A DNA stretch of 64,000 nucleotides from Escherichia coli (GTDB taxonomy: Bacteria > Pseudomonadota > Gammaproteobacteria > Enterobacterales > Enterobacteriaceae). This document shows positions 4,629 to 10,600 of the stretch, one piece after another. A model generated the notes under the pieces. That model ran no database searches and had not been told where the DNA came from. It worked only from the letters and a program-made list of their open reading frames with translations. The stretch is from NCBI RefSeq assembly GCF_024502345.1, contig NZ_JALDNN010000001.1. One strand, written 5' to 3'. The position numbers and the translations under genes are program-made. The number at the start of each line of letters is the position of its first letter. Position 1 is the first letter of the stretch.

Positions 4629-6356
4629 ATGCCCCATATCTCCACATTCACTGTACAGTGACCCGATGCCTCGGGAACTACAGTGGTTTAAATAGTTTGC
4701 TCTGGGGAGCGTGTAGCCATTGCTGCTGCAAAAATTTTCAGCAAGGCTGTATATCATGAAAGCCTCGCCGGCGTTCACCCACCAACTCTTCACACGGATT
4801 TCGTATACATAGCTAGGGCCTCCTGATTTTGGCGTCGCCGTAATCCTTTCCGAATTGCTGCCGACATTTTTAAATGTCACTTTACCGGTAGCATCAACAT
4901 CGACCCAGGAGGCAGAGCTTGAAAACTCATAATCAGCCGCCGTTTTTCCTGGGGCAAAGTTGTCATTATTCAACTGATAATACGCCCCGGTGAATCCCTG
5001 CGAAGGGAATGTAGTTGTCGGTAGGTCAGTACCATTGACTGACACTGTACCGCTCATTATTTTGTCTTCTGCGCGAGTGAATTGTATTGTGGTACTCAGA
5101 CCAGCTTGATGAACACCATTCAATACAGGGATCAGCGTTGCGATACCCTCTCTGCCGCCTGTAACAGTGGCTTTGTACTCGCCTGAGAAATTTTTACTGT
5201 AGTCAATTGCACTAACTTGCACATAGGGCACGTTGGTACCTGACTGCACAAATTCCAGCCCTTCAGAAACTTTGATCGGATTGCCTGATATATCGTGCAG
5301 AACAAGATGTAGCTCAGCACTATCGGTAAAGTCTCCTTTCAATGATGACCGATTGTTCTTAAGGACTGACTTTGAGGCGTCTGCCGGGCCTGCCACCAGC
5401 GTTATATCTACTGTTTGCATTCCACCAGCGGTCGTGACTGCGCTTACCGTGACGCTACCTGTCATCGCTCCTTTCACGCTTGTTGTCGCGATTCCGTTTT
5501 GATCTGTCACCGCTGTTAATGACGTTAATGTGGCAGAGCCGCTTTTTAAGGCGAAGTACACAGTTAAACCTTCGATCAGGTTACCACTGCCATCCTCAAC
5601 CGTTGCCTTTAAGGTACTTAAATCAGTGTTGGTGGCGGCGATAGTCGATGGATCAGCGATAAAGCTAGCAACATGGGCGGTACTTGAGTTGCCAGTGACT
5701 TTCACGATTGTCTGTGTCTGTATTGTTACACCGTTATGGAACGATGCAGTCACCGTATATGTACCGACTTTATTGCTGGTCAGAACGACTGGAGCCTGAC
5801 CTGAAGAGTTGGTTCTCACTTTTCCGCCACTTAACGTCGCACCTTCTGGCGTTACGCTAAAGTTGATGACCTGACCCTCCACTGGAGTGCCATTTGCAGA
5901 AGTTAGCGTTGCCGTCAGAGTTGCACCTGTTGGGGAATTGACACCGATAAGCGGGCTGGACGCCGAGAGTGTCAGTTTTTGATCGATTACCACCAGATCC
6001 TTCTCATAAGAGGATCCATTCGCCAGGGATGCTTTCACCATATACGAACCGTTTCTTTCGGGCGTCATAGTGACCTCGGCTATACCATGCGTATCAGTAG
6101 AGACAATATTTTGGCTGATGGTCATGTGCTCTGGTGGTTCTGCACTGAATGTTACAGATTCATTAAGAATCGGATTGCCAAACTGGTCGTTGACGTGAGC
6201 TTTAACTGCTACGTCTTGTGCGACCATGACCTGACCTTCAGGTATCTCCAGACTGGTAATCGTTGCAGAATTAATATCTGCTTTTGCATTCAGTAATCGC
6301 GAGATGACTTCAGTAGGTTTATCTGCCAGAGAGGCTGAAACTGTTTTCAGTCCGAC
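4629..6356 (-). pseudogene. yeeJ: yeeJ distal fragment (Big-domain inverse-autotransporter adhesin), 3' end truncated by IS1
   Basis: Ig-like repeat-rich translation continuing from the fragment above the IS2-like element. The reading frame runs 27 codons into IS1, so the native C-terminus is missing. Confidence 0.8.
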
Positions 6357-6420
6357 TGATGTAGCCCCCTGAAACACCGGACAGTAGCTGTATCTCCAGA
6401 TAAGAGATAGGCTTGAATAT

Positions 6421-6816
6421 ATGTCTAACACTAACGCCAATTTTGAGATGACCGGGATCCTGTTAGGGCAAGAAGTCCGTAAACGTAAAACTCCTCAGGA
6501 GAAGATCGCCATTATCCAGCAGACGATGGAGCCGGGTATGAATGTCTCCCATGTCGCCCGCCTGCATGGTATCCAGCCCAGCCTGCTGTTTAAGTGGAAG
6601 AAGCAATATCAGGAAGGCAGCCTCACCGCCGTTGCGGCTGGAGAGGAAGTCGTTCCTGCTTCTGAGCTTACTGCTGCTCTGAAGCAGGTCCGGGAGCTTC
6701 AGCGCCTTCTGGGCAAGAAAACGATGGAAGTTGAGATCCTGAAAGAAGCCGTGGAGTACGGTCAGTCGCGAAAATGGATAGCGCACGCGCCCTTGTTGCC
6801 AAAGGACGGGGAATAG
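6421..6816 (+). CDS. IS3-family transposase OrfA (HTH)
   Basis: Carries QEKIAIIQQ...[48 protein letters not shown], closely resembling IS2 InsC. Confidence 0.9.
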
Positions 6817-7655
6817 CCATGGTCAGCCGGACCATGGGCGTGTCGCGTGCGCAACTGTCACTGCGGATTAACCGTTCTGCCGACTGGCAGGACAGGCGCT
6901 GTAACCGGCGTAATGAAGAAGCAGACGCAGAAATACTGTCGGCTATCCTCAACATTATCAGCGATATGCCGAGTTATGGTTATCGACGCGTGTGGGGCAT
7001 CCTGCGCAAGCAACGTCGCACAGAGGGACAGCCACCTGTGAATGCCAAACGGCTTTACAGGATAATGAGCGAGCATAACCTGTTGTTGTTGCATCACAAA
7101 CCAGAGCGACCGAAGCGTGAACATAAGGGCAAGATAGCGGTGGCAGAAAGCGATATGCGCTGGTGTTCAGATGGCTTCGAGTTCGGCTGCGACAACGGCG
7201 AAAAACTGCGGGTAACGTTCGCGCTGGACTGCTGCGACCGTGAGGCCATAGACTGGGCAGCAAGCACGGGAGGCTATGACAGTTCGACCGTGCAGGATGT
7301 GATGCTGAGGTCGGTGGAAAAGCGCTTCGGCGACAGGTTGCCCGACACAGCGGTGCAGTGGCTGACGGATAACGGTTCAGCGTATACCGCGTATGAAACG
7401 CGGAGGTTCGCGAGAGAGCTGAATCTGGAGCCCTGCACAACAGCGGTGAGCAGCCCGCAGAGTAATGGCATGGCCGAACGGTTCGTGAAAACGATGAAAG
7501 AAGACTATATCGCGTTCATGCCAAAACCGGATGTGAGAACAGCACTGCGAAACCTTGCAGTAGCGTTCACGCATTACAATGAAAACCACCCGCACAGCGC
7601 GCTGGGATATCACTCCCCGAGGGAATACCGGCGGCAGCGGACATCGTTAACTTAA
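6774..7655 (+). CDS. IS3-family transposase OrfB (DDE integrase domain)
   Basis: Carries RWCSDGFEF...FALDCCDRE...WLTDNGS...HPHSALGY, matching IS2 InsD. Overlaps orfA in the -1 frame, consistent with programmed frameshifting. Confidence 0.9.
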
Positions 7656-7692
7656 GATACAAAAGCTGTTCGGAGATGGAGGGTCAAGATCA

Positions 7693-10600
7693 CTGTTTTC
7701 AGTCCGACCTCGGTGCTTGTCACAAGAATTTCAGCGAAACCCCGATCATCCGTTTCAACGCTGGTGCTGCTTAGCGTGACGGAAGTTCCGCGGAAATTAA
7801 CTTTTATACCTTCTACCGGGTTGCCGTTAGCGTCAGTGACGCTTGCAGTCATGGTCGCGCCCTCGGTCGTGCTGACGACGAATGAGTATACAGAGGTTAA
7901 GGAGGCTAGTTTTGCGGTACCAGCATCGGCAATCAAAGTCACCTGTTTCGTATCACTGACACCATAATTGTTCACGCTAACTGTCACGGGGTAGGTGCCG
8001 GATTTTGTACCGCTCAGTGTAACTTCAGCCTTGCCGTTGATGTCAGTAATGGCGGAACCGCCTTGTCCGAGAGTAAAGCTTGCGCTCACATCTGCCGGTA
8101 GCGTGAATGTCACCGCCTCATTGGCTAACGGGTTGCCGTTTCCATCAGTCACTGTTGCCTGCAGCCTGGTCATCCCGACGTTATTAGCGATAAAATTGTC
8201 CTCGGTAACGTTAAGATTAACCTGCGCAGTGAGCGTATCCGCAGTAAAGTTCACCACCAACTGCTCACTCTTACCGCCAGTTATCGATGCTGTAACAGTA
8301 TGAGCGCCTGCTTTTGTACCTTTCAGCGTGACTTTCGCTTTGCCTTCAGCATCAGTAATCGCTTTACCGCCATCGCTCAGCGTGAAGTTCGCCTTCACAT
8401 CTTCCGGCAGAGTAAATGTTACTTCAGTGTTGGCTATCGCATTGCCCTCTGTATCAGCGACTGTTGCTGTTAGTGTCGTGAGATCGTTATTGTCGGCAAT
8501 CACCGGATCCTTCGAGGCTGCCAGCGTGATTTCGGCATTCGCGACGTTCGGCACATAGGTCACTGTTTGTTGCATCGAATCGCCATTTTCGAGGGTTGCC
8601 GTCACTTGATAAACCCCGGCTTTTGTAGCGGTAAAGCTTGCGTATAAATAGCCGTCGTGGTTGGTAGTATTTATGCCGTTATTACTGAGGGTCACGCCTT
8701 CACTTGGTGATACTCTGAGGGTTACCTCCTGCTGGGGTACTCCGTTGCCGTAATTATCCTTCACCTCAATATACAGATTGGTAGTGTCGCCTGCGGAGAC
8801 TGTATCAAAAAGTGCCTGTAGCAAGGTGAGATGTGCCGTAGACGCATCAGCGTTGACATTAATTGATGTGCTAAGCGTGGAGCTACCATTTTCCAGACTG
8901 GCCTCAACGGTATCCGGTCTCGCTCCTGATTCTATCGAGGAGCGGGTATTGGTATAAGTGACGGCAGCCTTACCCTGTTCGTTCGTCACGGCTTGACCGC
9001 CGTTCGTCATTTCGGCTGTCGCTGCGTTGCTGGTGAAGTTCACAGTCACACCTTTCACCGGAAAGCCATTATTATCAACGACTGTGGCGGTGATGACGCT
9101 GCCGGAGCTGTTCTGCGGGGTACCGGCGATTATACTGTCTGGGACAGGCGTCAACTCGATAATTTTTGCCGCCGCTGTGTCGCCAATAAAATGCACAGTT
9201 TTGTTGTCGCTGGCACCATTATTAGCCAGTGATGCAGTGACCGTCTGCTCACCAAAGGCAACGCCTGCGAGAGTGGCCTGCGCGATGCCAGACTCATTGG
9301 TATTACTTACTCCCGGGGTCAGGGTGAGTCCTGAAGAGGCTGAGCTGAATGTTACCGGAAGATTATTCACCTCATTGTCGAACTGATCTTTAACCGTTGC
9401 AGTTAGCGTTGCGTTATCGACGCCATTACCTGTGATCTCATCTTTTGACATCTGCAGGACAACCTGAGCCGAGGTTTTGTCCGCCACAAATGTTACCGGC
9501 TGCGAATCACTGGTATTGTTATTACCCAGCGTTGCGGTAACCGTATGCGTGCCCGCTTTTTTACCTTTCAGCGTGACATGCGCTTCCCCATTGGCCTGAG
9601 TGATGGCAATACCGTTATTTTCAAGGGTAAAGTTTGCCGCAACGTCCTGTGGCATGGTGAAGTTTACCGTTATCCCCGCCACCGGATGATTCGACGGATC
9701 TTTCACCATCGCCGTAAGCTGCACGCTGTCACTGTTATTCGTCACCACCTGTTGAGCAGGGATGTTCAGCGTAACCTGCGCGTTGCTGGCATCGGGCGCA
9801 ATATTGACTGTCGTTGTATAGCCGTTGCCGTTAGGAAGTGTGGCTTCGACTGTATGAACGCCCAAAACCGTGCCCTTAAGGGTAACTTCAGCAACACCAC
9901 TGTCGTTAGTATTGCTTGTGCTCTGACTAAGTTGAGTATCTGCCGGGTTGGTACTGAAGGTGACCGGTAGATCTTTTACTGCGTTATCAAAAGGATCTTT
10001 CACTGTTGCTGTCAGAGTCGTCGCATCCACGCCATTCCCAATGATTTCCGCTTTCGATGTTTGCAGGACGACAACTGCGCTGTCCTTATCCGCCACGAAT
10101 GTGACTGGTTGCGCATCGCTGGCATTATTGTTACCCAGCGTTGCGGTAACCGTATGCGTGCCCGCTTTTTTACCTTTGAGGGTGACATGCGCTTCGCCAT
10201 TGGCCTGAGTGATGGCAATACCGTTATTTTCAAGGGTAAAGTTTGCCGCCACGTCCTGAGGCATGGTGAAGTTCACCGTTATTCCCGCCACCGGATGATT
10301 CGACGGATCTTTCACCGTCGCCGTCAGCTGCACGCTGTCGCTGTTATTCATCACCACCTGTTGAGCCGGGATGTTCAGGGTGACCTGCGCGTTGCTGGTA
10401 TCGGGCACAATATTGACGATTTTCGTATCGCTTTTACCGTTAAGCAGTATGGCTTCGGCTGTATGAACACCCAAAACCGTGCCCTTAAGGGTAACTTCAG
10501 CAATACCGTTCTCATTAGTATTAAGCGCCTTCAGACTCAGTTGCGTGTCTGCGGGGGAGGTGCGGAAGACTACTGACAGATTTTTAACCACGTTATCAAA

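Follow-up and report, generated by a model that had tools for sequence, protein, structure and literature searches.

What produces a direct repeat of 16 bp around an insertion sequence (IS) of a family whose members normally duplicate 3-5 bp of their target? The question is raised by a 64,000-nucleotide stretch of an Escherichia coli genome (contig NZ_JALDNN010000001.1; hereafter the window), in which yeeJ, a gene for an inverse-autotransporter adhesin, is interrupted by a 1336-bp IS2-like element. The 16-mer CTGTTTTCAGTCCGAC occurs twice in the window, at positions 6341-6356 and 7693-7708; no third match is present there, even at two or fewer mismatches, and shuffled sequence gives a chance expectation of 0.04 matches. 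Both copies adjoin the element (6357-7692, with the termini TGATGTAGCC...GGTCAAGATCA) without a gap. The initial annotation had placed the repeat directly outside both ends of the element, and its coordinates as well as the restriction of the 16-mer to these two sites of the window are confirmed. A repeat scan of the window returned an exact repeat of 17 nt (6340-6356 and 7692-7708, spacing 1352), the 17th base being the terminal A of the IS (...ATCA); by chance this is the same as the target base preceding the duplication, which is therefore 16 bp long and not 17. The boundaries of the element are secure: where the 1336-bp sequence recurs unchanged in other E. coli chromosomes and plasmids, the match covers bases 1-1336 and stops there. 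A second copy of the IS was sought in the window and none was found. Chance or faulty assembly as the source of the repeat is a negligible prospect, given the low expectation in shuffled sequence and the recurrence of the same pattern in complete genomes, plasmids, prophage contigs and metagenomes.

The gene yeeJ encodes a repetitive array of Ig-like domains, and the initial annotation had offered a second explanation, in which the 16-mer was already present twice in this array and the IS came to lie between the two copies, with or without a deletion of the sequence separating them. A relative of the 16-mer does exist in the closest intact allele (locus L001, strain FDAARGOS_944), where the next-best match within yeeJ has four mismatches and is located about 930 bp away. 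An empty-site query was built from the 800 bases on the left of the element, ending in the 16-mer, and the 800 bases following the right 16-mer, so that the 16-mer was represented once, and was compared with 5,426 complete E. coli genomes. In 4,898 of them the match extends over at least 80% of the query, and the best matches comprise 1600/1600 bases in one piece, on exactly 1600 bases of the record, with 99.6% identity. The intact allele of FDAARGOS_944 holds the 16-mer once, at the junction, with its sides colinear with both flanks in the window, and two separated copies were not encountered in the colinear intact alleles. Deletion of the IS and one copy of the repeat in silico restores an uninterrupted frame of 1908 amino acids (aa) across the site. 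Moreover, unrelated targets of the same IS also carry repeats of 15-16 bp, as described below. Since uninterrupted yeeJ alleles hold the 16-mer once, exactly at the junction, the comparison proposed in the initial annotation has confirmed a genuine 16-bp target-site duplication (TSD), and a repeat that pre-existed in the Ig-domain array, with loss of the sequence between, is refuted. The insertion junction in yeeJ was found in 0/5426 complete E. coli genomes; the insertion is therefore private to the genome of the window, and a recent event would fit the perfect state of the repeat.

The element appears to be ISEcl1, a name based on the 1336-bp length and on source names rather than on an alignment to the reference entry AF342826. 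It is so called because of (i) the protein models described below, (ii) the listed length and group, ISEcl1 being a 1336-bp element of the IS3 family (PMC5001619) and a member of the IS2 group with an origin in E. cloacae (AF342826; PMC10425158), and (iii) the source names in the protein clusters, where members with the exact sequence are called "ISEcl1 family transposase" and "Transposase of ISCel1" [sic]. OrfA matches HTH_Tnp_1, and OrfB matches HTH_21, rve and rve_3. In the PGAP annotation, identical copies are labelled "IS3 family transposase, programmed frameshift", with the start of the fused OrfAB at the ATG equivalent to position 6448 of the window. On the model NF033516 transpos_IS3, OrfB reaches 199 bits and passes the cut-off of 160, and the IS2 TnpB and TnpA subfamily models are matched by OrfB and OrfA, respectively, with scores below the cut-offs (NF006918, 416.5 bits against a cut-off of 597; NF006928, 201.2 against 229). 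The score on NF033577 transpos_IS481 is 94.8 bits, below the cut-off of 224, and the element has two open reading frames (ORFs). The terminal inverted repeats are imperfect and of the TG...CA type (TGATGTAGCCCCC... and ...GGGTCAAGATCA), as is usual in the IS3 family. At the DNA level the identity is 67% to the IS2 of K-12, and 77-78% to a pair of other E. coli elements; PGAP assigns one of the pair to the ISEc48 family. One family trait is missing, the short duplication (3-5 bp; 5 bp in the IS2 group), as the duplication in the window measures 16 bp. The element is nevertheless filed in the IS3 family; judged by its predicted proteins, frameshift and ends it is assigned to the IS2 group, with the length of the duplication as a variant trait.

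ISEcl1 is itself a target of another element. An IS110-family element of about 1.17 kb is located inside ISEcl1 at approximately position 254 in several genomes (NZ_CP171637.1, NZ_CP100883.1, NZ_CP026202.1 and NZ_CP026206.1), and two further loci (L020 and L023) hold IS positions 255-1336 only. Because the insertion recurs at this place, a specific target site of the IS110-type element within ISEcl1 is suggested.

In E. coli the strains 873.10 and ABWA45 are rich in ISEcl1, with about 15 copies each. The first six other E. coli copies of ISEcl1 (99.8-100% identical to that of the window) occupy five targets, namely an integrase site (two copies), ydeE, the ydfJ-ydfI region, a tolA-adjacent site and a phage terminase gene, and they are flanked by repeats of 15 or 16 bp. 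The sample was widened through the exact OrfB protein, a degenerate left-end pattern on prophage contigs and a second prophage scan, and further through an OrfB alignment against one genome per species and a metagenome scan; the latter gave 120 loci, few of them with a complete copy, as contigs break at the IS. After the removal of redundant flanks, 109 full-length copies with TG...CA ends were retained. They comprise ISEcl1, a variant from Candidatus Sodalis endolongispinus, the ISEc48 type and a further type represented by locus L013, and are referred to as the TG-ended clade. The lengths of their direct repeats are compared in Table 1 with those of IS2-type copies scored by the same procedure.

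Table 1. Length of the direct repeats flanking copies of the TG-ended clade and of IS2-type elements
Direct repeat	TG-ended clade	IS2-type
16 bp	15/109	0/57
15 bp	33/109	0/57
14 bp (one mismatch)	1/109	0/57
6-13 bp	0/109	0/57
5 bp	6/109	48/57
4 bp	0/109	1/57
None (3 bp or less)	54/109	8/57

The repeat-bearing copies of the clade fall into two discrete classes, 49/55 with 14-16 bp and 6/55 with 5 bp; in other words, about 90% carry 15 or 16 bp and about 10% exactly 5 bp, with nothing between. A third class near 26 bp, looked for up to 30-35 bp, is absent among the copies scored. The long duplication is a regular property of the TG-ended clade, and the initial annotation was well founded in considering a true long duplication by a diverged relative of IS2: the empty alleles are single-copy, and independent copies regularly show 15-16 bp. 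Its notion of an atypical insertion mechanism is supported for the long TSD, but had not foreseen canonical 5-bp duplications made by the same element. The copies that lack a repeat come mostly from metagenome contigs and from the Sodalis genome, which is heavily rearranged. In some of them the left flank is known from one site and the right flank from another, and such mismatched pairing of flanks is what recombination between copies, or a chimeric assembly, leaves behind.

The same survey bears on the idea that the long repeats are secondary, formed by a 5-bp insertion and a later duplication of 10-11 bp, or by host repair synthesis starting at nicks in other places. Nothing speaks directly for such a process, which is raised only as 15-16 bp exceeds the textbook range of the IS3 family. 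Against it, the repeats always abut the ends of the IS exactly and are perfect in nearly all cases, the length class is only 2 bp wide over dozens of unrelated targets in several genera, and no intermediate, that is, a 5-bp repeat together with an offset repeat, was seen in the survey. A secondary origin is accordingly very unlikely.

Two groups of copies merit a separate description. The genome of Candidatus Sodalis endolongispinus, a mealybug endosymbiont (NZ_JAFJYC01, loci L121-L191), harbours more than 60 copies of an ISEcl1 relative with an OrfB about 91% identical. Many of them are pseudogenised and most are without direct repeats, which is consistent with extensive recombination between the IS copies; those that keep their repeats have 14-16 bp and never 5 bp. 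On the prophage contig IMGVR_UViG_2788500177_000005 (locus L040, positions 4615-4637; the same as L322) a copy of ISEcl1 without a direct repeat is followed directly by a 23-bp remnant resembling the right end of another copy (ccggaaatggcgggtcaagatc), which points to an insertion next to an IS end or to a rearrangement at one.

Among the controls, IS2 proper gave exactly 5 bp in 38 copies and 4 bp in one, and no longer repeat; the copy IS2A of K-12, for instance, has ATTAC on both sides. Three further IS2-type lineages, from Aeromonas, Klebsiella michiganensis, Pluralibacter and Lonsdalea, showed 5 bp in 10/10 repeat-bearing copies; their OrfB proteins are 66-68% identical to that of ISEcl1, and their ends, TAGAyT...AATCCA, are those of IS2. 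The ratio of long to 5-bp duplications is 49:6 in the TG-ended clade versus 0:48 in the IS2-type elements (Fisher p = 4e-23). Since IS2 and the three other lineages give 5 bp and none of them a long duplication, the latter is a derived trait of the TG-ended clade.

In its general construction ISEcl1 follows the IS2 of E. coli K-12 (insC/insD): a length of about 1.33 kb, orfA and orfB with a -1 frameshift, HTH_21 and the rve DDE core, and imperfect terminal repeats of about 40 bp with the core GCCCCCTGAA...CCAGACA, the right end being 1 nt shorter. The two elements are 67% identical in DNA and 63% in OrfB. In contrast to IS2, with its TA left end and exclusively short duplications, ISEcl1 has TG at both ends and mostly duplicates 15-16 bp. 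Its OrfB further differs in three small indels around the HTH_21 domain and linker, and in the lack of a C-terminal extension of about 8 aa, which is also missing from some of the relatives with 5-bp duplications. The ISEc48 type and the second E. coli type (loci L013 and L014) share with ISEcl1 the length of 1336 bp, the ends TGA...ACA and duplications of 15-16 bp (6/6 repeat-bearing copies). They are other IS species, with DNA about 78% and OrfB 76-77% identical to ISEcl1, and, unlike ISEcl1, had no 5-bp copy in this small sample of six.

Both length classes arise from an unchanged sequence. Among the copies without any difference from that of the window over the 1336 bp, two are flanked by 5 bp (L019 and L026), six by 15 bp and three by 16 bp (the window, L002 and L006). 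No substitution separates the 5-bp from the 15-16-bp copies, as identical copies give all three lengths, so that the length class does not depend on which variant of the element is inserted. One of the 5-bp cases is located upstream of pdeG in strain ETEC1739, where an empty site reconstructed with one AATAC agrees with other genomes over 595/595 bases. This match of the empty site indicates that the 5-bp copies are real duplications and not coincidences. The mean of the long class is 15.3 bp, which is 10.3 bp above the 5-bp class, or approximately one turn of B-DNA.

IS3 elements transpose by a copy-out/paste-in route, in which the 3'-OH ends of a circle junction attack the two target strands at a stagger, and gap repair turns the stagger into a direct repeat. 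ISEcl1 would move by the same route. Its two 3'-OH ends would attack the target strands at a distance of either 5 bp, as in the ancestral geometry of IS2, or 5 + 10-11 = 15-16 bp, which adds one helical turn; gap repair would then convert the longer stagger into the long repeat. Both placements would keep the active sites on the same face of the helix, with the longer register preferred in the ISEcl1/ISEc48 clade. The longer register may involve a target that is looped or sharply bent, a different arrangement of subunits, or a bending protein of the host. The single private insertion of ISEcl1, its 16-bp TSD and the regularity of that length in the clade are established by the observations above; the account as a whole, with one transpososome capable of two staggers, we consider probable.

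The preference for the longer stagger, as compared with IS2, may be due to transposase changes specific to the clade, perhaps together with the TG left end. In OrfB, three indels separate the clade from all relatives with 5-bp duplications: +2 aa at 49-50, +1 aa at 103 and -2 aa at 111-112. They lie around the HTH_21 domain and the linker preceding the DDE catalytic core, and 37 further diagnostic substitutions distinguish the OrfB of the clade from that of the 5-bp relatives. The three indels, the 37 substitutions and the TG instead of TA left terminus are candidate determinants, put forward as a hypothesis only from sequence comparison. That one IS3-family transpososome, with the same protein and the same DNA ends, can engage its target in two registers exactly one helical turn apart, and that a handful of such changes switched the preference as the ISEcl1/ISEc48 clade diverged from IS2, is a tentative proposal and less likely than not.

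A different division of labour would also yield the mixture of lengths. The transposase of ISEcl1 itself might make 15-16 bp only, the rare 5-bp insertions arising when a co-resident IS2-type transposase, which makes 5 bp, mobilises ISEcl1 in trans through the similar terminal repeats. IS2 is common in E. coli, its ends share with those of ISEcl1 the core mentioned above, and cross-recognition is suggested by a plasmid on which 1 bp connects the right end of ISEcl1 with the left end of an IS2 (see below). In addition, 5-bp repeats occur in 0/13 repeat-bearing Sodalis copies versus 6/36 of the ISEcl1 type. Against this reading, samples of this size give no significant difference between Sodalis and the rest, and the eukaryotic IS481EU families display the same mixture with a single enzyme (PMC10045372). 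Mobilisation in trans is on balance unlikely, and a single transpososome with two staggers is preferred.

In IS2 the minicircle junction needs a 1-bp spacer. A comparable structure was found on the metagenome contig OJTV01001662.1 (locus L202, positions 1970-1993), where the right inverted repeat (IRR) of an ISEcl1-type element is connected with its own left inverted repeat (IRL) through a single G. This IRR-G-IRL arrangement is of the minicircle-junction or tandem-dimer type, with a 1-bp spacer as in IS2; a stringent consensus scan found no promoter across it. On the KPC plasmid p1-LC-1302-2020-KPC3 (NZ_CP091757.1; locus L316, positions 1709-1765), a right end of the ISEcl1 type (...GGGTCAAGATCA) is followed by a single C and then by the left end of an IS2 that IS1 has truncated. 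The arrangement suggests an ability of ISEcl1 to take an IS2 end as its recipient or target. No circle junction was found in the complete E. coli genomes or in the viral contigs, and mobilome sequencing of Kpn2146 yielded 0 circle junctions for ISEcl1 (PMC5001619). To judge from the IRR-G-IRL contig, the first step of transposition may be IS2-like.

Several observations weigh against the proposed mechanism or restrict its reach. (i) The scheme is drawn from insertion scars only. (ii) Half of the clade copies have no repeat, and the ratio of about 9:1 covers only the surviving, scorable copies. (iii) The 5-bp class comprises only 6 cases, all of the ISEcl1 type, for which another enzyme acting in trans is possible. 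(iv) The circle junction is known from one contig, which is probably chimeric, as a low-GC gene is fused there to the IS interior at about position 960. (v) The composition of the target lends weak support to its bending: the AT content of the long duplications as a whole does not differ from that of the flanks (p = 0.35), and their centre, with 64% AT against 56% in the outer bases, differs at an uncorrected p = 0.03. The target consensus amounts to no more than 0.2 bit per position, indicating little specificity. The composition of the target neither supports nor excludes a DNA-bending model.

The features of the interrupted locus are collected in Table 2. The interruption is not the only lesion of this region. 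In comparison with the closest intact allele, the T-run of yeeJ at 11801-11804 is shortened from TTTTT to TTTT, and this 1-bp deletion breaks the frame; with the IS removed in silico it leaves frames of 701 aa and 1908 aa. Either a genuine second lesion or an error of sequencing could account for it. Between shiA and yeeJ, positions 3193-4613 of the window contain shorter ORFs only (229, 91 and 167 aa), and the intervening gene in the closest genome (L001, positions 3606-4658) is a 1053-bp coding sequence for a glycosyltransferase of family 9, so this gene may be disrupted in the window too. For the genome in question the consequence is an ordinary one, the loss of yeeJ function through a private insertion, in addition to a frameshift elsewhere in the gene.

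Table 2. Features of the yeeJ locus and of the inserted element (positions in the window)
Feature	Position	Strand	Remark
yeeJ 3' (C-terminal) fragment, disrupted inverse-autotransporter adhesin gene	4548..6356	-	matches annotated yeeJ / Ig-like domain-containing protein
Left TSD copy (CTGTTTTCAGTCCGAC), yeeJ sequence	6341..6356	.	once in uninterrupted alleles
ISEcl1 (IS3 family, IS2 group; apparent identity), 1336 bp, 5'-TGAT...ATCA-3'	6357..7692	+	identical copies in 17+ E. coli records
IRL, imperfect, TGATGTAGCCCCCTGAAACACCGGACAG...	6357..6396	+	ends compared by eye; homologous to IS2 IRL, TG start not TA
orfA, 131 aa, HTH_Tnp_1, IS2 TnpA-like	6421..6816	+	
orfB, 293 aa, HTH_21 + rve DDE catalytic core, -1 frame vs orfA	6774..7655	+	
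IRR, imperfect, ...CTGTTCGGAGATGGAGGGTCAAGATCA	7653..7692	+	ends compared
Right TSD copy, 16 bp	7693..7708	.	exact repeat of left copy
yeeJ 5' (N-terminal) part, with separate 1-bp deletion near 11801	7693..13884	-	

Discrete classes of duplication length have been described for other transposases. In the literature the IS2 subgroup is given 5 bp, and the "relatively conserved" IS3 family is contrasted with IS481 and IS1202 (PMC10045372). The IS1202 family is divided into ISAba32 with 5-6 bp, ISTde1 with 15-17 bp and IS1202 with 27-28 bp, each subgroup keeping to one class, and the classes correlating with indels (bioRxiv 10.1101/2022.12.17.520857). Duplications of about 6 and about 15 bp are reported for IS481, and 4, 15 and 24 bp for the eukaryotic IS481EU, sometimes within one family; the authors of the latter noted the 10-bp periodicity and stated that there was no clue as to how the longer duplications arise (PMC10045372). 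The DDE transposases of these elements are distantly related to those of IS3, and, as in ISEcl1, the duplications form discrete classes about one helical turn apart. Unlike ISEcl1, they belong to different families and have a single ORF without a frameshift, and the IS1202 classes are fixed per subgroup; a class of about 26 bp is absent among the scored copies of the ISEcl1 clade. ISEcl1 therefore resembles IS481, IS1202 and IS481EU in behaviour and not in membership.

For ISEcl1 itself, a passing remark on IncX3 plasmids mentions a copy "flanked by two 14-bp DRs" (PMC10913469), and a published table gives the generic 5-bp repeat (PMC10425158). No analysis of 15-16-bp repeats in the IS3 family or in ISEc48 was found in the literature; ISfinder, which lay outside the search, may list the true values. 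The element is thus known, and we have not found a description of an IS2-group clade that duplicates 15-16 bp with a 5-bp minority made by the same sequence.

The length of the duplication serves as a family signature in the classification and annotation of IS elements, and it is taken to reflect a fixed spacing of the active sites in the transpososome. ISEcl1 is clinically common, with mcr-8.2, qnrS1 and blaIMI among its neighbours. Its footprints of 15-16 bp will be missed or misread by tools and curators expecting 3-5 bp; a real insertion might be called a recombination product, or the repeat be taken for pre-existing sequence, as the initial annotation had considered. IS2 is among the biochemically best-studied IS3 elements and duplicates only 5 bp, and its relative in the same host, with 63% identity, duplicates 5 or 15-16 bp. 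If the proposed mechanism is true, ISEcl1 and IS2 would form a tractable pair in E. coli for studying the origin of the quantised duplication lengths in IS481, IS1202 and IS481EU.

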